Shown here piece after piece: positions 1,720 to 13,464 of a stretch of 13,501 nucleotides of DNA. The position numbers and the translations under genes were made by a program. Below the pieces are notes generated by a model. That model saw nothing but the letters and a program-made list of their open reading frames with translations. It was not told where the DNA came from and ran no database searches. Position 1 is the first letter of the stretch. The number at the start of each line of letters is the position of its first letter. The stretch is from a virus (taxonomy: Duplodnaviria; Heunggongvirae; Uroviricota; Caudoviricetes). The stretch is from the IMG/VR virus record IMGVR_UViG_2734482784_000005, positions 1 through 13,501 of that record, one strand, 5' to 3'.

Positions 1720-1932
1720 TCAAGTCGCCGGGAGGTACTTGTAGATTGTTTTCACGTCCACGCCTGTCACATCAGCCACCTGCTGCCGGGTAGCGCCGTT
1801 CTCCAGCATTCTGCGGCACCGCTCCACCACTTCTTCAGTCATTATCCGGCGGCGGCCGCCGACTCTCTCCTGCTCCATCGCTGCGGACCGACTCGGATGC
1901 ATTCGGCAAATTCTAGGCCGTGATTTTTCCAA
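1720..1932 (-). pseudogene. Hin/Gin/Pin-family serine DNA invertase remnant (C-terminal HTH only)
   Basis: GGRRRIMTEEVVERCRRMLENGATRQQVADVTGVDVKTIYKYLPAT aligns well with the C-terminal DNA-binding domain of Hin/Pin as I recall it (GGRPRAIT...GHPRQQLA...STLYRYFPA). The N-terminal catalytic domain is absent and the ORF begins with a non-ATG codon. Confidence 0.55.
1751..1779. repeat. direct repeat copy B (inside invertase remnant)
   Basis: TTCACGTCCACGCCTGTCACATCAGCCAC; partner of 1173-1201. Confidence 0.7.
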
Positions 1933-2713
1933 TCCTCTCCATCAGATATGCCAGGATGACATCCAGTGTGCTGGTCCCATATGCATATTTGCCGGGGAAA
2001 ACCAAACATTCTGACAAAACGGATGTTAACGGAGACACTGAACCATTGCCTGCTCCGCCAATACTCATTTTTTGAGACGGGCTATACGCTGGGATTGTAT
2101 AGCCCGTCACTTGTCGGCTGGTCACTGCAGACTGATCTGACCGCTGGTATGCAATTGCATAGGATCCAGCAGCCTTGTTAGAGCACATAACTACAGCGCA
2201 GAATAAAGATTGCCCTATATTGTTAGGAGTAAATGCCAGATCGGCCTCGATCCCTCCATTCAGAAAAATCGGGAATGAACCTGCTGACGTTGTACGAATG
2301 CCGACGCCATGAGGTGTGCTTTCCTGGGTTGCGATAACCGCTCTGTCCTGTGGCGTAGCCGGAAGCGCCCCACCTGGCAGCTGATAGATGAATGCAAAAG
2401 TATTGATGTTTGCGTCCATAACCACCGCCGTATCACCAGCCATGCCGGATGCACCGGAGAAATTAAGCCCCTGCAAAACAGAACCATTCAGCTTTGTGGA
2501 TGGCTCGAGGGTCTCCAGTGACTTGAAAAGTCCGCCATCTAATCGGTTAGAGATAGCTACTACTTTTGCACCAGACCCCATTTTTAGAAACTCTGTCTTC
2601 ACTGGTGTCCATACTGATGGGGATAGTTCTGAGATCGCTTTCTCTGCCGCTGTTTGTGAGTACACAGGGAGTAAGGGGTTATTCAGTCCAGTTAGTGTGT
2701 AAATCAGTCTCAT
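1913..2713 (-). CDS. hypothetical protein, 266 aa, cotranscribed downstream of the tail-fibre-like esterase gene
   Basis: ATG at 2713 preceded by GAGGA; starts 10 nt after the stop of the 687-aa ORF. No family recognised; Gly/Ser/Thr-rich. Confidence 0.55.
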   Translation of the reverse strand: MRLIYTLTGLNNPLLPVYSQTAAEKAISELSPSVWTPVKTEFLKMGSGAKVVAISNRLDGGLFKSLETLEPSTKLNGSVLQGLNFSGASGMAGDTAVVMDANINTFAFIYQLPGGALPATPQDRAVIATQESTPHGVGIRTTSAGSFPIFLNGGIEADLAFTPNNIGQSLFCAVVMCSNKAAGSYAIAYQRSDQSAVTSRQVTGYTIPAYSPSQKMSIGGAGNGSVSPLTSVLSECLVFPGKYAYGTSTLDVILAYLMERIGKITA

Positions 2714-2722
2714 TTTTTATCC

Positions 2723-4786
2723 TCAGAAAACGTTAATACGAAAAGCGGGGAGCCAGTCGTAAAGAGTCACGGATGTGTCATACACCCATATGATTCCAGC
2801 GGAAGATCGAACACACCCTCTTGCACCAAGAGTCCGCCCGGAAGGTTTTACAGATGCGCCGCTCTGAAGTGGGTTTTCTGCTGTCGCATAGGAAACGCGC
2901 CCAAAACGTCCAGAGGGGGCGGTCGCCAGGTTAATCAGCACGCCCTTGCCGTCCGAGCTGATCGCGATGCTCGATATAGCAGGTGGAGCACCAGTCTCAT
3001 CCGTGTAGCTAAAGCCGTAATTGGCCAGACCGGAGGTGTTGATCGTAGTCGTGTCCAGCACCAGGTTCGTATACGCTGGGACATTGATTTGTATCTGCGT
3101 GGGTGAGTTCCACACGAAACTGGTCGGAACCATCCCTGACCAGCCGCTCGTAAACCACTCCTGGAGAAGCGCTCTCGCCACAGCTGCTCCGCGCCGGTTC
3201 TGGCCCGCACACGTCAAGTGCAGACCGTCTGAAATAAAATCGTACTGGTACAAACTATTGACCAGCCTGAATTGCTCTTTTCCGTGCAATCGCGTCGACG
3301 CCAGTCGCGCGTACTGGCCTGTAAATGCACCATGCCCGTCATTGACATACCCCAGCTGGGTAATGGCGATAATCGGCGGTTCGTTTTGACCCGTTCTTGC
3401 GATGATGTCGCTGGTGATTTGTCTCTGGTACTGCCTCATCCGTGATTCATACATTCCTTCTCGTAATCCTGACCAGTCCTCGTCGGACTCTCCCTGCATC
3501 CAGTCAACGCAGAGAACAATCGGCAGCCAGCCGCGTGCTTTACAGGCCGTTACGCAGTCTTCGATTGAATCGAGCAGATACTGATATACCTGGTTACCCC
3601 GTTTCTGGTACTCGTAAGCCTGACCAGACTGCGCACATACGATTGATAGCGTGCGCGGCATGATTCCGGTAGCTGCAGCCATATCGCGAATGAAGGTGTT
3701 CGCGAGGCCGCTTGCGGCCGTTTCTTTATCTGTCCCACTTACTGCCTCAACCAGTGGCACCAGAGTAGTGCTGCGTGTCCCTGTACGCCTAACCCCGCCG
3801 CTGAGCATGAAAGCGTTATCAGGATATATCGGCGTTGCTGCGACAATGGTTTGATCGGCGTCAGGACAATATCCTCGAGCGTTGGATTGCCCAGCAGTCA
3901 CAAAGATAAAACATACAGGCACTGTCTCTGAGTAGGGGTACACAGTAGACCCTGACAAATGAAGTCCATACTCAGGGAGCTGGTTGGCATCATCGTCGCC
4001 ACCACCACCGCCATTTCCGTTATTAACAGCTACCAGGCCACCGTCTGAGTAAATCCAGTGCTTCCCACCAACCGTATAAGCTTCAACGATCTGGTTTGTG
4101 GTTGAATCAACCGTCATCCGCCACACTTTTTCACCGCCAATAAACTGCGGTATAGAACCCTCCCGGCCCAGCGCATAGAGTTCGGATTCTTGTTGGGTTA
4201 AAAGTTCGTAATATTTTCCGTCAGGACCGATTTGAATTAATCTGCCGCTTGTATTTAAAAATGGAGCCACGCGGGAAGTCTCCGGATCATATGCTGCCAG
4301 GGTCACGCTGTCTGGCGATACCTGGTATGCGTAGTCGTCACGAACCATCCGCCGTCCGGTTGGCTGCAGCGTTCCAGCGAGGTTGATATACTCATCGGCC
4401 AGAGAGCTTCCGTCCTGACTGCGGACATAGGTTGTTGAACCTGCCGGAATATTCGCAATATCCGCCTGCGCCGCCGCCAGCGTCATGTACTGCCGGCTGA
4501 GAGGGATCAGGTTTTGGCGGGCTTCATCAATAACAGCGTCGGTAGCAGCTGCCATTTTTTTAGTAGCCCCAATTATCGTATCCTGGGCGTTACCAAAACG
4601 ATCTATAAAAGTATCGCTTTCGCTGTTCAGGAAATCATCGTACGCCAGGGCGTTATCATTCAGATCCTTCATGCTATTTGAAGGTCTTGGATTGCCGGTA
4701 TTATATCTTTTGTCCATACCTGTTCCTGTCTTCATCTTTTCAATGAAGCAATTAAGATTGACGCCCCGCCCCTTCAGGGCTAACAT
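2723..4786 (-). CDS. phage tail-fibre/tailspike-like protein with central SGNH/SASA-type carbohydrate esterase domain
   Basis: Long ORF. AGQSNARGY (GQSN motif typical of the SASA/sialate-O-acetylesterase SGNH family) and a downstream DGLHL (DxxH) motif. A long N-terminal region and a C-terminal beta-rich region fit a receptor-binding tail protein. Start is uncertain: ATGs at 4786, 4735, 4717 and 4672 are all possible; the 4717 ATG has AGGAACAGGT upstream. Confidence 0.6.
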   Translation of the reverse strand: MLALKGRGVNLNCFIEKMKTGTGMDKRYNTGNPRPSNSMKDLNDNALAYDDFLNSESDTFIDRFGNAQDTIIGATKKMAAATDAVIDEARQNLIPLSRQYMTLAAAQADIANIPAGSTTYVRSQDGSSLADEYINLAGTLQPTGRRMVRDDYAYQVSPDSVTLAAYDPETSRVAPFLNTSGRLIQIGPDGKYYELLTQQESELYALGREGSIPQFIGGEKVWRMTVDSTTNQIVEAYTVGGKHWIYSDGGLVAVNNGNGGGGGDDDANQLPEYGLHLSGSTVYPYSETVPVCFIFVTAGQSNARGYCPDADQTIVAATPIYPDNAFMLSGGVRRTGTRSTTLVPLVEAVSGTDKETAASGLANTFIRDMAAATGIMPRTLSIVCAQSGQAYEYQKRGNQVYQYLLDSIEDCVTACKARGWLPIVLCVDWMQGESDEDWSGLREGMYESRMRQYQRQITSDIIARTGQNEPPIIAITQLGYVNDGHGAFTGQYARLASTRLHGKEQFRLVNSLYQYDFISDGLHLTCAGQNRRGAAVARALLQEWFTSGWSGMVPTSFVWNSPTQIQINVPAYTNLVLDTTTINTSGLANYGFSYTDETGAPPAISSIAISSDGKGVLINLATAPSGRFGRVSYATAENPLQSGASVKPSGRTLGARGCVRSSAGIIWVYDTSVTLYDWLPAFRINVF
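4758..4786 (+). promoter_or_regulatory. putative sigma-70 promoter for the HTH/acyltransferase operon
   Basis: TTGACG (4758-4763), 17-bp spacer, TAACAT (4781-4786); upstream of the 4819 start. Confidence 0.35.
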
Positions 4787-4818
4787 CGCCTTACGTGTTT
4801 AAACGGTTAAATAAGAGA

Positions 4819-5082
4819 ATGATTTTAATAAATAAATACACCCCTCCAACGCAGGAAGATTTAGCCAGACTGAAATCCGCACTAAATTACTCCGGAAACC
4901 AAATGGCAGGGCTCGCAGGTGTAGCCAGCGATAGCCAATGGCGGAAATACACTGGCGGAGAGAGCCCCAGGGTAATGTCAAGACACATACTGTTTTATAT
5001 TGCAGCTCAGCTTGTTCTGTCTGATGAGCAACTTAACAATGTAATAAATAAAATGCGCGATATTGGCGCGGAGATAAAATAA
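4819..5082 (+). CDS. small XRE-like HTH protein, 87 aa
   Basis: ATG at 4819 (the track start at 4795 is GTG). The segment NQMAGLAGVASDSQWRKYTGGE resembles an HTH_XRE recognition region. Its stop overlaps the acyltransferase start (TAATG). Confidence 0.5.
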   Translation: MILINKYTPPTQEDLARLKSALNYSGNQMAGLAGVASDSQWRKYTGGESPRVMSRHILFYIAAQLVLSDEQLNNVINKMRDIGAEIK

Positions 5083-6173
5083 TGCTTGGCCTAATAAGGT
5101 TTTTTTTGGCATCGTGCGTCATTGCTTTTCACTTAACGGCTCGCATACCTGCACTTGGCAACTTTGCAGTGAATTGCTTCTATGTTATTAGTGGTTTTTT
5201 AATAACATACATTTTGCATGAAACATACAAGTTCAACTTCTCTATGTTTTGGAAAAATAGAATACTGAGGTTATTCCCGGCATATATATTTTTTCTCGTC
5301 ATGGGCTTTCTTATTATAAAATTAATTCCATCCGCAAAGGAATTCCACTCAAACTGGACAGGCAATTTCTTACCTGGAGATTTATTAGGAAACCTCTTAA
5401 TCTTCCCCTGGGCTTTCCTTTCTGATAATGCTGTAGCAAATCCATTCGGTGCCTTTTCATCCATTTATCACTTTGCTATTGATGGTAATAGATTCAGAAT
5501 AGTCACATCATCATGGTCAGTGGGTGTTGAGATAACATGTTATTTTTTATTGTGGCTTTTCATAGCCCGAAATAAATTTACAGCCATTACGTCGATTCTG
5601 CTTTCACTGCTTTATCATGCTTACGTATATGTAGTACACCATTCTTTTGATATGGCGTATTTCCCATTCCTTGCTGCAACACTTCCTTTTAGCATGGGTT
5701 CTCTGGGTTATTTTGCCCATAGAAAGTTCAAAGCTATGTATCTTTCTCCACACAAAGCTTTTTTAATAACATTTATTTGCATCGGGATTTTTATTACCAA
5801 TTGGCATTTATATACAATTAATCCATTAGGTCAGTACAACATAATACTTTACTACACCAATAATGTAATAGCATTGTTTACAACCCTGGTATTATTAAAA
5901 ATAAAGACAAACATACATCTTGAGAAAATACTCAAGTGGTTTGGTGACCTGGCCTATCCAATTTTTCTTTGTCAATATTTTGGTGGATTTCTAGCATGGC
6001 TTGCTATTGGTGGTGAAAATCGTGGCTTATCCATCTTTTTATTAGGCTACCCAATATCAATTGCACTTGGGATCGTTTGTGTAATATTAATAGACAAGCC
6101 ACTAATTAAAATTAGAGCAAAAATAAGGGCGGACGCTCAAAGCAAAAATAATCAGGAAAACTCTTCAAGGTAA
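5082..6173 (+). CDS. acyltransferase family 3 integral membrane protein (O-antigen/polysaccharide O-acetyltransferase-like, OafA/Oac type)
   Basis: 363 aa, multiple hydrophobic helices, NCFYVISGFLITY (the FxxISGF motif of the acyltransferase-3 family), RBS GGAGA 8 nt upstream. Markedly AT-rich relative to flanking genes. Confidence 0.8.
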   Translation: MLGLIRFFLASCVIAFHLTARIPALGNFAVNCFYVISGFLITYILHETYKFNFSMFWKNRILRLFPAYIFFLVMGFLIIKLIPSAKEFHSNWTGNFLPGDLLGNLLIFPWAFLSDNAVANPFGAFSSIYHFAIDGNRFRIVTSSWSVGVEITCYFLLWLFIARNKFTAITSILLSLLYHAYVYVVHHSFDMAYFPFLAATLPFSMGSLGYFAHRKFKAMYLSPHKAFLITFICIGIFITNWHLYTINPLGQYNIILYYTNNVIALFTTLVLLKIKTNIHLEKILKWFGDLAYPIFLCQYFGGFLAWLAIGGENRGLSIFLLGYPISIALGIVCVILIDKPLIKIRAKIRADAQSKNNQENSSR

Positions 6174-6994
6174 ACTAAACCATTCGCTCCTTTTCCTGAT
6201 GAATAGTTACCATTCCCCCCGGCACCACCTGAGCCGGGGAAACCGCCATCATCGCCAGAACTACCGAAGTGGCCATTGCCACCCGTTGATGAAAATGCAG
6301 CTCCTCCAGCCCCGCCAATAAAAGCATCAGAACCATAATACAGACCACCTTGAGATATTCCGCCAGTAATATTTAAAATGTTCCCGCCACTTCCGATACC
6401 TCCAGCAGGAACTGTAGCCCCGCCACCACTCCCTCCAGTAGCTGAGATTAAACTCCCGAACCTTGTATCACCACCATTCCCGCCTTTAGACGAGACACCA
6501 GCAGCAACAGCACTGCCACCAGTACCTATCGTCACAGATATAGTTTCGTTATCAGAAATATTAAATAACCCTTCCGAAAATCCACCAGCACAACCTCCAG
6601 ATGCGCCCACACTAACTGGAGCATTCTGGCCACCTCCCCCCGCTCCCCAAACTTTCACCCGCACTCTTTTCGTCCCTTTAGTTGGAGTGTAAGTCCCTGA
6701 CTTAGTAAAGGTGACAATATTAAGCAGGCGACCGCCACCAATCGCTTTAAGAACCTGTGAATCATCATCAGGATCAAGCTCAAGCCCCGCGCCCTCAACA
6801 ACGTTTATGTGAACCTCGGCCAGATCTGAGGATGGCCGGGGAACGGCCCGCAGTTGCTCAATAATCGCCGCTCTCGCTGCCTGCTGGAACTTGCGCCCTG
6901 TCTCGCTTACCAGATGCCTGCCTTTCAGCGGTCCCTTGCTCGGGGCGCGCCAGTAACTATTTACGCTCGGTGGAAATGGTAAAGTCAGTTTCAT
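6152..6994 (-). CDS. RusA-like (Holliday junction resolvase family) N-terminal domain fused to a glycine-rich C-terminal region, 280 aa
   Basis: N-terminus MKLTLPFPPSVNSYWR matches the RusA signature (LPWPPSNNRYYR in E. coli RusA). The C-terminal ~170 aa are Gly-rich low complexity. Strong RBS AAGGGGG upstream of ATG 6994, and only 9 nt after the dam-like stop. Confidence 0.6.
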   Translation of the reverse strand: MKLTLPFPPSVNSYWRAPSKGPLKGRHLVSETGRKFQQAARAAIIEQLRAVPRPSSDLAEVHINVVEGAGLELDPDDDSQVLKAIGGGRLLNIVTFTKSGTYTPTKGTKRVRVKVWGAGGGGQNAPVSVGASGGCAGGFSEGLFNISDNETISVTIGTGGSAVAAGVSSKGGNGGDTRFGSLISATGGSGGGATVPAGGIGSGGNILNITGGISQGGLYYGSDAFIGGAGGAAFSSTGGNGHFGSSGDDGGFPGSGGAGGNGNYSSGKGANGLVYLEEFS

Positions 6995-9193: not shown

Positions 9194-9363
9194 GCTTATA
9201 TGGTCTAACGGACAATATCTCTAAGCTCCATACATGTTAAAAGCTCTGAGATTGATTCGCTTGCATAACTCAATCCCTGTGGGGGATTGGCTTGTATGAA
9301 GCCTATCCGGGATTGTGACTTGCTTTGATTTAACAGCAGGTTTTCACTTTGCATGGAGGATGC

Positions 9364-10518
9364 ATGGAAAACTTCAAAGTACGTCTTAAAAATCACATTG
9401 AACATGTTAAAAATGTTAGAGAACACTGCACAACGGAAGAGACAACCAAGCAGGCTTTGATACTTCCTTTTTTGGACATCCTAGGCTTTAACGCATATGA
9501 TCCGCAAAAAGTCAAAGCTGAATATGGTGCGGACTTCCCTGGTGTGAAAGTGGGTGAGCGTGTAGATTATGCTCTATTCTGCCAAGGTGTTCCCGTTATG
9601 TTTATTGAGGCCAAAGGTTGTAAAGAAAAAATGGACAACCATTGTCCTCAATTATCTAGGTATTTTAATTCTACTCCTGAGGTGACAATATCAGCAATTA
9701 CTAATGGAATTGAATGGCGCTTTTTTACGGATCTCAATGAAAAAAATATAATGGATTCAACGCCATTTTTACGAATCATGATGGATGACATTAAAGATTC
9801 TGATGCTGAGCAATTATTTAGATTCCGCCATGACAAATTCAAACCAGAGGCCCTAAGAACCCTTGCAGAAGAGAGTGTTTATATTTCTGCATTTGTTAAA
9901 GTCGTGAGTACAAGCCTTCGGGAAGTAGATCATGAATTTGTTAGATATGTTGCAGGACGAGCAAATATTGGTCGTCAATTAAATCAAAGATTTATAGAAA
10001 CAATAACTCCATTGGTGAGGCAGGCCGTAGAGAGGTCAGTAAGTGAAATGGTTGTTTCTGGTCTTTCATCAAGAACATCTATTCCTGAATTAGAATCCCC
10101 TGCTGATGTAACTGAAAATAATGTAATTGATGAGCGCGCAGATATTGTCGATGCAGAGAACCCCAACATAGTAACAACCTATAATGAAAGAATTTTATTT
10201 GAAAAAATCTGTTCTATTATAGGCCCTGCATACGAACTTCAAGCCAAAGATACAGAGTCCTATTACTCTATTCTTTTCCAAGGAAAAACAAACCGCTGGC
10301 TGGTTCGCTATTATGACAAGAAGAATCGCTCAAACATACAGTTACCAATTGATATCAATGAAATAACCGGTAATGAAATTAAAAGAGCCGGACTTGAACA
10401 TGATAACAATCGTATTTTCATTGAACATCCCGAGGATGTATTAAGGATTTCAGGTTTAATCCTTGATTCTTTACAATATGTACAGAATGATGAGAATTTC
10501 AGAAAGCGTCGTCCATAA
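9364..10518 (+). CDS. standalone HsdR-N-type PD-(D/E)xK nuclease domain protein, 384 aa, with uncharacterised C-terminal domain
   Basis: ATG at 9364 preceded by GGAGGA. N-terminal ~130 aa follow the type I restriction HsdR N-terminal nuclease pattern: TKQALILPFLDILGF ... RVDYALF ... VMFIEAKG ... QLSRYF ... ITNGIEWRFF (D...EAK...Q..Y..TNG..W). AT-rich. Located between the cI-like gene and the pL/OL-like site. Confidence 0.7.
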   Translation: MENFKVRLKNHIEHVKNVREHCTTEETTKQALILPFLDILGFNAYDPQKVKAEYGADFPGVKVGERVDYALFCQGVPVMFIEAKGCKEKMDNHCPQLSRYFNSTPEVTISAITNGIEWRFFTDLNEKNIMDSTPFLRIMMDDIKDSDAEQLFRFRHDKFKPEALRTLAEESVYISAFVKVVSTSLREVDHEFVRYVAGRANIGRQLNQRFIETITPLVRQAVERSVSEMVVSGLSSRTSIPELESPADVTENNVIDERADIVDAENPNIVTTYNERILFEKICSIIGPAYELQAKDTESYYSILFQGKTNRWLVRYYDKKNRSNIQLPIDINEITGNEIKRAGLEHDNNRIFIEHPEDVLRISGLILDSLQYVQNDENFRKRRP

Positions 10519-13374: not shown

Positions 13375-13464
13375 TGGCGGAGAGAGGGGGATTTGAACCC
13401 CCGGTAGAGTTGCCCCTACTCCGGTTTTCGAGACCGGTCCGTTCAGCCGCTCCGGCATCTCTCC
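13375..13464 (-). tRNA. serU: tRNA-Ser (anticodon CGA), 90 nt including CCA
   Basis: Minus strand reads GGAGAGATGCCGGAGCGGCTGAACGGACCGGTCTCGAAAACCGGAGTAGGGGCAACTCTACCGGGGGTTCAAATCCCCCTCTCTCCGCCA: 7-bp acceptor stem, CGA in the anticodon loop, long variable arm typical of tRNA-Ser, TTCAAAT T-loop. Confidence 0.9.

Follow-up and report, generated by a model that had tools for sequence, protein, structure and literature searches.

An esterase-type tail-fibre gene and an XRE-led acyltransferase cassette, back to back in a defective Escherichia coli prophage, are probably independent modules

The window, that is the whole 13,501-nucleotide stretch of DNA analysed here, is a defective prophage of E. 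coli that lies at tRNA-Ser; across the studied loci it matches E. coli HS with 100% identity. Its baseplate is of the Mu/SfV type and the element is decayed. In E. coli HS the complete tail-gene context comprises baseplate J, YmfQ, a Gly-rich fibre, (AT3), the esterase fibre and its partner. In the window (Table 1) the proximal Gly-rich protein is part of a chimeric ORF, matched by PHROG 34 (RusA) at aa 1-63 and by PHROG 863 and Pfam Gly_rich_2 at aa 81-280, and 99% identical, from residue 44 on, to the 261-aa protein of E. coli HS; a truncated RusA pseudogene is annotated at this position in PCN061 (RefSeq). Judged from sequence, this fusion is a deletion scar that proves the loss of structural (virion) genes. 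Since all virion genes are lost, the fibre is not deployable from the window element. Only the XRE-AT3 cassette is still able to act there; the fibre gene has been left behind as a relic. Nothing about selection follows from the 16 identical copies in E. coli, because they are possibly clonal.

Table 1. Positions of the features at the locus, numbered from the first nucleotide of the window
Feature	Position	Strand	Description or source
266-aa partner of SASA tip	1913..2713	-	chaperone or second virion subunit; always accompanies SASA tip
Distal tail-fibre gene, 664 aa (probable start)	2723..4717	-	N-terminal baseplate/fibre adaptor, central beta-rich region, SASA/SGNH domain, C-terminal domain
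SASA domain (carbohydrate esterase, SGNH-type)	3161..3907	-	Pfam PF03629
SASA block V, DGLH	3218-3229	-	translation
SASA block III, QGESD	3482-3496	-	translation
SASA block I, GQSN	3881-3892	-	translation
N-terminal adaptor, ~aa 1-150	4268..4717	-	conserved among fibres with differing tips
Promoter-like site, TTGACG-17-TAACAT	4758..4786	+	candidate promoter of XRE-AT3 cassette
XRE-like small protein, 87 aa, cassette leader	4819..5082	+	RefSeq CDS in PCN061, WP_024186701.1
AT3-only membrane acyltransferase, 363 aa	5082..6173	+	Pfam PF01757
Chimeric ORF	6152..6994	-	RusA residues 1-62 fused to residues 44-261 of proximal Gly-rich tail-fibre protein

An earlier note on this DNA, made from the letters and a list of open reading frames, had described a 687-aa protein of the SGNH/SASA esterase family, carrying GQSN and DxxH motifs in a tail-fibre-like architecture. 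The family assignment was confirmed by Pfam, with SASA matched over profile positions 4-226 of 226 (E=1.8e-11; 44.6 bits, above the gathering score of 24.8), and by the translated motifs. The best PDB sequence match, 2APJ (a DUF303/SASA esterase), was obtained at E=0.22 with all three blocks aligned, and the AlphaFold model, at pLDDT 40, left the SGNH fold without structural confirmation. The 687-aa ORF is present (2723-4786, minus strand) but is probably over-extended; a start at MDKRY, window position 4717, is preferred because RefSeq places the start there and homologues begin there (MAQRYNTGN in p27 of Serratia phage vB_SspM_BZS1, MALYKTGNP in Klebsiella).

The architecture is indeed that of a tail fibre. 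The protein matches phrog_4201 'tail fiber protein' (E=1.3e-66), and its N-terminus is 44% identical over 109 aa to the virion-detected BZS1 p27. The first ~150 aa match many tail-fibre PHROGs whose C-termini differ, including PHROGs 9750, 3257, 19652 and 14987, which match at aa ~27-150 only. Among E. coli fibre variants the first ~124-135 aa are 81-93% identical to the window protein and the C-termini are mostly unrelated. The nearest sequence relatives are Klebsiella pneumoniae prophage proteins (85-92% identity); identity reaches 83% with a protein of Klebsiella phage ST16-OXA48phi5.2 and 82%, over 597 aa, with Escherichia phage AV124.

Receptor-binding proteins whose tip is an SGNH-type esterase are already known from K. 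pneumoniae prophages and from G7C gp63.1; esterase activity was shown for two of the Klebsiella prophage fibres, and O-antigen de-acetylation for gp63.1 (PLoS Biol 2026, PMC13123978). The window fibre belongs to the SASA branch and is likened to gp63.1 and the two tested Klebsiella fibres by domain class; G7C is a lytic podovirus. The acetyl groups removed by G7C are added by a gene of the host O-antigen cluster; their addition by the phage itself is not reported.

The tip of the fibre travels with its partner. A 72-73% identical partner lies directly downstream of the SASA fibre in a Klebsiella phage, AV124, Klebsiella siphovirus prophages and the E. coli 780-aa variants, and other tip types each have their own unrelated partner of ~250-300 aa. 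Searches of the 266-aa partner against Pfam and PHROG gave no match. SASA tip and partner occur without AT3 nearby in four other phage contexts, namely ST16-OXA48phi5.2, lytic AV124, the E. coli 780-aa variants and a lambda-like Klebsiella prophage (156 blocks of the collection); both sipho- and myovirus prophages of Klebsiella and a lytic Vequintavirinae phage carry them in this state. Conversely, AT3 at 97-100% nucleotide identity adjoins six different receptor-binding fibre tips: SASA, two distant SASA-like, GDSL_2 and two 'TolB-annotated', the latter with GHS, GRNN and DGLHPS in the C-terminus and homologous to the solved tail spike 9SIJ/9SIM.

The AT-rich divergent operon of the earlier note was found as ORFs 4795-5082 (plus strand, 95 aa) and 5082-6173 (plus strand, 363 aa), the smaller being reduced to 87 aa by the RefSeq start, ATG 4819. 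The start codons of the fibre and XRE-like genes, at 4717 and 4819, thus lie 101 nt apart. GC content is 43.2% in the XRE-like gene and 35.2% in AT3, against 52.7% in the esterase gene. Membership of AT3 in its family is supported: Acyl_transf_3 is matched at E=2e-15 (57.1 bits, cut-off 31), phrog_3333 'O-acetyltransferase' at E=5.8e-22, and R6-X10-H17, F33YVISG and R60ILR63 (RXXR) match the catalytic motifs of characterised carbohydrate O-acetyltransferases. The proposed coupling to the small gene is likewise seen, as a 1-nt stop/start overlap (TAATG); AT3 is also preceded by a Shine-Dalgarno of its own, and at its 3' end it shares 22 nt with the Gly-rich fibre gene, which is convergent with it.

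A comparable gene is oac of Shigella phage Sf6, encoding an AT3-only O-antigen acetylase, a serotype-converting moron to whose role that of the window AT3 is likened. It too lies on the opposite strand beside a receptor-binding (tailspike) gene near the prophage end, and shares the FxxISG and RXXR region. However, the two are only 36% identical over 44 aa and are not orthologues, the Sf6 tailspike is an endorhamnosidase rather than an esterase, and Sf6 has no HTH leader gene and a convergent instead of a divergent arrangement.

The small leader protein matches phrog_20491 (E=3.3e-30) and has 194 homologues, mostly ~87 aa long and named XRE/HTH by NCBI. The gene claimed by the earlier note is present, but its HTH stays below Pfam thresholds: no HTH model reached threshold in the Pfam search, and the call is made because of consistent sub-threshold matches (HTH_31 in 27/36 members, Xre-like-HTH in 21/36). 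Aca2_YdiL is sub-threshold in 2/36. The structure model (pLDDT 55.7) predicts five helices at low confidence. A -35/-10-like match does exist at the proposed promoter element, at a position suiting a transcription start ~25 nt before ATG 4819, but it is weak (9/12 to sigma-70), and the region holds five such matches against 7.1 expected in shuffled sequence. XRE homologues have a hairpin upstream, and the site overlaps what is left of it here, a degenerate remnant. No inverted repeat or operator-like repeat was found in 4680-4860.

Behind the XRE-like gene stand many different cargoes: AT3, OafA-type AT3-SGNH, hexapeptide acetyltransferases, GT25, GT2 and GT4 glycosyltransferases, a Wzy_C protein, a GDSL hydrolase and unknown proteins. 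The idea that the HTH protein is dedicated to the acetyltransferase is thus not supported, as the same small protein leads many cargoes and sometimes none. OafA-type AT3-SGNH, hexapeptide acetyltransferases, GT25, GT2, GT4 and Wzy_C are alternatives at the same position, and because these are glycan enzymes a surface-glycan role of the cargo is suggested; the low cassette GC (35-43%), typical of acquired genes, was counted towards the same role. In pairing a short HTH protein with variable accessory cargo in one transcript, the cassette recalls the Aca proteins and the HTH domain of AcrIF24, which are also the best PDB profile matches, both non-significant (AcrIF24 E=0.2, Aca3 E=0.48). In Aca-type operons, however, the HTH gene comes last rather than first, the cargo is anti-CRISPRs rather than surface-glycan enzymes, and the regulators are autoregulators, whereas no operator was identified for the XRE cassette.

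The closest precedent for the whole layout is BZS1, in which p23-p28 comprise a Mu-type baseplate, a short fibre, an opposite-strand HTH gene and AT3, an esterase-like large fibre and a virion protein of ~300 aa, next to the prophage end as in the window. Both p27 and p28 were detected in virions, p27 by mass spectrometry (PMC7556043). The fibres are nearly identical over their first 35 aa and the XRE-like proteins are 67% identical. In contrast, the AT3 proteins are essentially unrelated in sequence, and the esterase-like part of the BZS1 fibre, its C-terminal half, has no Pfam SASA match and is only 26% identical to that of the window. BZS1 also carries one more gene for a small membrane protein (p26), and its HTH gene is preceded by a terminator-like hairpin; both are missing from the window. 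BZS1 is a viable phage, not a remnant.

Taken together, fibre and cassette are probably separate, independently exchangeable modules in a decayed prophage, their adjacency resulting from an insertion slot and not from an obligate pairing. Independence is argued because a single AT3 occurs with six tips, because the SASA tip and its partner are found where AT3 is missing, and because cassettes occur beside other fibres. XRE-led acetyltransferase cassettes also adjoin ordinary, non-enzymatic P2-type fibres, one follows a Gp53-like fibre in Pantoea, and Klebsiella prophages with a 49%-identical AT3 use the same slot.

Perhaps the XRE-like gene is instead a resident of the phage and serves a separate function, such as control of neighbouring phage genes, the downstream position being a favoured landing site for cargo. 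This is doubtful. Conservation of the protein (63-75% identity across Enterobacterales, ~50% in Burkholderia/Pseudomonas) far exceeds that of any cargo, several loci have no same-strand gene behind it, and a terminator-like hairpin with a small membrane-protein ORF just upstream in 25 of 28 sampled loci suggests another small transcription unit. However, stop/start overlap or very short spacing links it to the cargo in the window and several relatives, the cargoes are functionally coherent, as expected of one unit, and an acetyltransferase lies beside every Serratia copy (Bujak et al., PMC7556043).

The earlier note had also read the two activities as a pair acting on the same polysaccharide, a speculation already made for BZS1 (Bujak et al. 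2020, PMC7556043), in which AT3 puts acetyl groups on the same glycan from which the virion esterase takes them off. If so, lysogens would be hidden from competitor phages, and the phage's own lineage could infect cells already converted, or free itself from debris. E. coli, Klebsiella and Serratia all show the layout, with AT3 and esterase sequences that differ, and competition between acetylation and de-acetylation is discussed elsewhere (PMC13123978). An ecological link is possible, because SGNH-like motifs occur in every one of the six tips that adjoin the E. coli AT3. A matched pair is nevertheless unlikely: one AT3 sequence occurs with six unrelated tips, showing no co-variation, the SASA tip is often found with no AT3, and acetyltransferase cassettes stand beside non-enzymatic fibres. 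Temperate phages often carry SGNH tips in any case; among the receptor-binding proteins of Klebsiella prophages at large, SGNH is reported as the domain of highest prevalence (PMC13123978), which implies a high base rate.

It is very improbable that the esterase is metabolic, de-acetylating host mucin sialic acids for lysogen nutrition like the active, prophage-encoded NanS-p of EHEC, despite the shared SASA family and the RefSeq name 'sialate O-acetylesterase', since it has a tail-fibre adaptor, a place in the tail gene cluster and a virion-detected homologue, and its catalytic domain retrieved, by tblastn of 50,697 phage records, tail-fibre proteins of Klebsiella, Escherichia, Acinetobacter and Vibrio phages, with no Stx phage among the 20 matching records. 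NanS-p itself, encoded close to stx and the lysis genes, is no tail-fibre protein and showed no tblastn similarity to the catalytic domain at E<=1e-3.

Both parts belong to already described kinds, and the layout has been published for BZS1. Under the preferred reading of two independent modules, the back-to-back position would reflect a conserved slot between the proximal and the distal fibre gene, into which cassettes insert on the opposite strand. The distal fibre would consist of a conserved adaptor, an exchangeable SASA/SGNH tip and a tip-specific 266-aa partner; in a complete phage, by analogy with the tested esterase fibres, it may bind an O-acetylated surface glycan of the target cell and gain access to the cell surface by stripping that glycan of acetyl groups. 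The other module would be a lysogeny-type cassette, or moron, on the strand opposite the tail genes, in which the XRE-like protein may set the level of expression and the AT3-only O-acyltransferase would pass acetyl groups across the inner membrane to the lysogen's surface polysaccharide (O-antigen, group-1 capsule or ECA), thus altering how the lysogen is seen by other phages and by antibodies.

The esterase, XRE-like and acyltransferase reading frames named in an earlier note are all present, and they belong to the remnant of an Escherichia coli prophage that integrated at tRNA-Ser(CGA). The region 2723-6173 is 100% identical in E. coli HS and 15 further complete genomes, and strains PCN061 and S1-INA-02-B match the entire window, IS insertions excepted; among the 37 E. 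coli genomes carrying the acyltransferase gene, those with the identical locus are probably clonal. The minus-strand tail genes of E. coli HS are ordered as Mu-type baseplate genes, YmfQ, a 261-aa Gly-rich fibre, the opposite-strand cassette (XRE-like gene plus acyltransferase), the esterase fibre and the 266-aa partner protein. E. coli HS retains the intact Gly-rich gene and part of the structural module. In the window, an in-frame RusA/Gly-rich chimera is the scar of a deletion that took all head and tail genes; since the first 62 rusA codons now run into the Gly-rich gene, every virion gene between the two has been removed. The prophage no longer makes particles, and its fibre gene cannot contribute to particles of its own element.

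Coordinates of the features discussed, in the window and in comparison loci (L numbers) from other phages and prophages
Feature	Sequence	Position	Strand	Length (aa)	Remark
266-aa partner gene	window	1913-2713	-	266	downstream of the fibre gene
Esterase tail-fibre gene	window	2723-4717	-	664	SASA tip
Maximal ORF of the fibre gene	window	2723-4786	-	687	
Hydrophobic ORF	window	4485-4802	+	105	runs opposite the conserved N-terminal part of the fibre; stops 17 nt short of the XRE-like start
Promoter-like element	window	4758-4786			9/12 sigma-70 match
Hairpin remnant	window	4762-4781			
XRE-like gene	window	4819-5082	+	87	starts at ATG 4819
AT3 acyltransferase gene	window	5082-6173	+	363	
RusA/Gly-rich in-frame chimera	window	6152-6994	-		RusA residues 1-62, then residues 44-261 of the proximal Gly-rich fibre protein
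Low-GC gene	window	9349-10518	+	389	GC about 37%
tRNA-Ser(CGA)	window	13375-13464			integration site
Left arm	window	1-2713			gene order shared with L139
Left-arm counterpart	L139	6972-11137			lambda-like Klebsiella prophage
Terminator-like hairpin	L003	4964-5000			upstream of XRE homologue
No-Pfam cargo	L018	3054-3413			
No-Pfam cargo	L020	3764-4558			
No-Pfam cargo	L039	6252-6857			
No-Pfam cargo	L047	618-1130			
No-Pfam cargo	L004	5839-6465			
GDSL/SGNH hydrolase cargo	L005	5273-6025		250	Burkholderia phage phiE131
End domain of 'TolB' tip	L051	3209-4123	-		last ~300 aa
Polysaccharide region	L146	2143116-2167848			E. coli HS

Two further observations concern the composition of the remnant. 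Downstream of the SASA tip, the left arm has the same gene order as a lambda-like Klebsiella prophage (266-aa partner, HTH fragment, 140-aa integrase-like fragment of phrog_19751, and a 79-aa plus ~123-aa UmuD-like pair) and thus seems to have been acquired whole as one block, grafted onto an E. coli fibre anchor. The 389-aa gene flanked by those for the RacR-like repressor and the ParB-like protein, named 'type I restriction endonuclease' in RefSeq and without a PADLOC match, looks like another acquired cargo gene.

The fibre's assignment to the SASA esterase family held up. Its tip matches Pfam SASA (PF03629) over profile positions 4-226 of 226 (44.6 bits against a gathering cut-off of 24.8; E=1.8e-11), with the catalytic blocks in the order GxSN (serine nucleophile), QGExD and DxxH: GQSN at aa 276, QGESD at aa 408 and DGLH at aa 497. 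These blocks are invariant in 18 aligned homologues and align with the same blocks of PDB 2APJ, the only hit (E=0.22) when the esterase domain alone was searched against PDB sequences. Matches of the full-length protein to AAC(3) structures fall in the central region and are meaningless. The AlphaFold2 model, from a shallow alignment of at least 76% identity, reached a mean pLDDT of only 40, too poor for a fold search; the 120 homologues listed are all at least 80% identical. The 687-aa ORF proposed earlier does exist but is probably too long: the RefSeq start and homologues beginning there place the fibre start almost certainly at MDKRY (664 aa), and the 23 additional codons overlie the region upstream of the cassette.

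The tail-fibre architecture was also borne out. E. coli HS and the L006-L017, L050 and L051 prophages all have the gene in the tail cluster, after baseplate J, YmfQ, the Gly-rich fibre and the cassette in that order, and its first ~124-135 aa are 81-93% identical to other E. coli fibre variants whose tips are mostly unrelated. The SASA tip is also fused to other anchors, one of them with a match to Pfam PF18668, a TSP1/Gp66-type tail-spike N-terminal domain. The nearest relatives of the window's esterase are very common prophage proteins of K. pneumoniae (85-92% identity), and with tips so similar in Klebsiella, the target may be a polymer common to both genera. In intact relatives, the fibre would bind an acetylated glycan and de-acetylate it, as G7C gp63.1 does. 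A nutritional esterase of the NanS-p kind is unlikely, given the tail-fibre anchor and the tblastn result: the proteins matched are tail fibres, and none of the 20 matching records is a Shiga-toxin phage. Searches with PADLOC defence-system profiles (E<=0.01) gave no match for the XRE-like protein, the acyltransferase, the esterase, the partner or two neighbouring proteins. The hydrophobic ORF opposite the fibre's N-terminus is probably a by-product of conserved coding sequence on the other strand.

The second enzyme of the locus is an acyltransferase-3 (AT3) protein, as had been stated; in E. coli HS its gene is ECHS_RS10305. It scores 57.1 bits with Acyl_transf_3 (PF01757), for which the cut-off is 31 (E=2e-15; the match spans positions 6-323 of the 326 in the profile), and is assigned to the PHROG 'O-acetyltransferase'. 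The motifs R/K-X10-H in TMH1, FFXISG in TMH2 and RXXR after TMH2/3 are common to characterised carbohydrate O-acetyltransferases, and several AT3 motifs are essential in OafA/Oac (Pearson et al., 2020; PMC7448272); the protein carries R6-X10-H17, F33YVISG38 and R60ILR63. Its length and lack of any SGNH match fit the AT3-only type, and a hydropathy scan, too crude for counting helices, resolved only about six strong peaks where that type has ten transmembrane helices. Orthology with Sf6 Oac was rejected, identity being only 36% over 44 aa, and all 84 clusters of homologues are uncharacterised 'acyltransferase family' proteins. The AT-rich character of the operon and the overlap of its two genes were confirmed: GC is 35-43% in the cassette against 49-53% in the flanking genes (52.7% in the esterase gene), and the stop of the small ORF overlaps the AT3 start as TAATG.

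The 87-aa protein encoded ahead of AT3 is likely an HTH protein, judging from its family. No Pfam model matched it at E<=0.01, the best being HTH_31 (E=0.041; 14.6 bits, with the cut-off at 27), and NCBIfam returned only RstR (E=0.049); but sub-threshold HTH matches recur across the family (HTH_31 in 27, Xre-like-HTH in 21 and HTH_19 in 10 of 36 members), and relatives carry XRE/HTH names at NCBI. The structural model has five helices at low confidence (pLDDT 55.7), too poor for a fold search, like that of the esterase, because of a shallow alignment; profile matches to AcrIF24 and Aca3 in the PDB were non-significant (E 0.2-0.5). The promoter-like element at 4758-4786 is well placed but statistically unremarkable. 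No inverted repeat of at least 8 nt, as expected of an operator near it, was found in 4680-4860, nor was a Dam/OxyR-type phase-variation signature, since only three GATC sites occur nearby, all inside the fibre gene. The XRE-like protein would tune expression of the cassette.

In other loci the leader is preceded by a conserved structure. When the 60 nt upstream of XRE homologues were surveyed, a terminator-like hairpin (GCCCC-loop-GGGGC, then T3-8) was present in 25 of 28 sampled loci (for example L003, L018, L030, L053 and L070), ending 11-18 nt before the start codon, with the stem kept and the loops variable. A small ORF with a C-terminal membrane segment, similar to p26 of Serratia phage vB_SspM_BZS1, precedes it. 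The E. coli cassette keeps a hairpin remnant and has lost the small ORF and the T-run; the hydrophobic antisense ORF showed no similarity to p26-like proteins. A conserved terminator-like hairpin at this position implies that the XRE-like gene and its cargo would normally be expressed through terminator read-through.

The cargo itself is highly variable. Among XRE homologues gathered from 42 viral and 80 genomic loci, the following gene encodes AT3, AT3-SGNH, hexapeptide acetyltransferases, GT25, GT2, GT4, Wzy_C proteins, a GDSL hydrolase, DUF1796, T5orf172 or proteins without a family, or there is no same-strand gene. With few exceptions, the alternative cargoes in this slot are surface-glycan enzymes, and the AT3 of the window would accordingly acetylate a surface polysaccharide of the lysogen. 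Several cargoes of 119-264 aa without a Pfam match occupy the acetyltransferase position and are candidate new surface-modifying or other lysogenic-conversion proteins. In Burkholderia phage phiE131, the gene whose start is overlapped by the XRE homologue encodes a free-standing GDSL/SGNH hydrolase, not an acetyltransferase; the cassette can therefore carry an 'eraser'-type fold as a lysogen-expressed gene. With regard to possible substrates, the E. coli HS region contains the O9 polymannan cluster (wbdA-C, wzm, wzt) and, beyond gnd, a second, wzy-containing polysaccharide locus that encodes glycosyltransferases and an O-antigen-polymerase-like protein; AT3 or the esterase could act on either polysaccharide.

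The acetylating and deacetylating activities had been read as a pair acting on one polysaccharide. As a fixed unit, this was not supported. In E. coli, the XRE-AT3 cassette (97-100% nucleotide identity) adjoins six different fibre tips on one ~150-aa N-terminal anchor: SASA, weak-SASA, distant SASA-like, GDSL_2 and two related types named 'TolB family' in RefSeq, every type with its own unrelated downstream partner of ~250-300 aa. Conversely, the SASA tip and its 266-aa partner occur with no AT3 nearby in four contexts, namely Klebsiella phage ST16-OXA48phi5.2, the lytic Vequintavirinae phage AV124, a lambda-like Klebsiella prophage found in 156 blocks of the collection, and E. coli 780-aa variants. 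Fibres adjoining XRE-led cassettes in P2-type and Pantoea prophages are ordinary and non-enzymatic. Three comparisons (AT3 with many tips, the tip without AT3, the leader with many cargoes) indicate that the modules move independently, and favour juxtaposition at the cassette slot over an obligate enzyme pair.

What keeps the pair hypothesis alive is that all six tips beside the E. coli AT3 have SGNH-type motifs, the 'TolB' types included. In the latter, the last ~300 aa carry GHS, GRNN and DGLHPS in SGNH order (in L051, with the same tip in L013 and a related one in L017). This end domain is detected by none of the Pfam SGNH models; it is homologous to the solved tail spikes 9SIJ/9SIM (E=1.6e-47), for which no publication was found, and shares 36% identity with the C-terminal end of the tailspike of Salmonella phage epsilon15. 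No other kind of tip is as common as SGNH in related temperate phages, and its presence in all six is read as a high base rate rather than as proof of coupling. Among the enzymatic domains of Klebsiella prophage receptor-binding proteins, SGNH is the most prevalent; two SGNH fibres were shown to be active esterases, and acetyltransferases occur in 5-30% of prophages (2026 PLoS Biology study; PMC13123978).

Similarity of the small protein led to Serratia phage vB_SspM_BZS1, which is built in the same way: Mup44-48 baseplate genes and a short fibre come first, then, on the opposite strand, a small membrane protein, XRE and AT3, and after these a 793-aa fibre, a virion-associated protein and attP. 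The XRE-like proteins are 67% identical and the fibre N-termini nearly identical over 35 aa, whereas the esterase halves share only 26% identity and the AT3s are unrelated; the virion-associated protein p28 is not a homologue of the 266-aa partner. The BZS1 fibre and the downstream protein were detected in virions (the fibre, p27, by mass spectrometry), and a deacetylase fibre plus an acetylase converting the O-antigen was proposed (Bujak et al.; PMC7556043). In Serratia, the HTH gene always had an acetyltransferase neighbour, and the authors had no clue to its role (Bujak et al.; PMC7556043). The locus studied here represents, in E. coli, an arrangement that had been published for Serratia, built from two well-known types of part.

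A joint reading, in which the XRE-like protein is the dedicated control element of a cargo-swappable 'surface-glycan editing' cassette and the acetyltransferase and esterase form a pair on the same polysaccharide, is considered improbable as a whole. In its first part, the cassette may be widespread in temperate phages of Gamma- and Betaproteobacteria, with cargoes from AT3 to proteins of unknown family. In its second, acetylation may mask lysogens of Mu-type-baseplate prophages of E. coli, Klebsiella and Serratia, while their own virions carry the eraser in the form of SGNH tips.

If AT3 and the esterase fibres do share one glycan, prophages would be writers as well as erasers of a surface mark, one that decides which phages infect E. 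coli and Klebsiella, with consequences for the host range of phage therapy, for serotyping (O/K typing misses acetylation) and for vaccine antigens. The by-product of greatest use is the XRE-like leader, a marker of phage-borne surface-glycan editing genes: being conserved, it provides a practical genomic flag for surface-modifying enzymes carried by phages, including cargoes without a family assignment.
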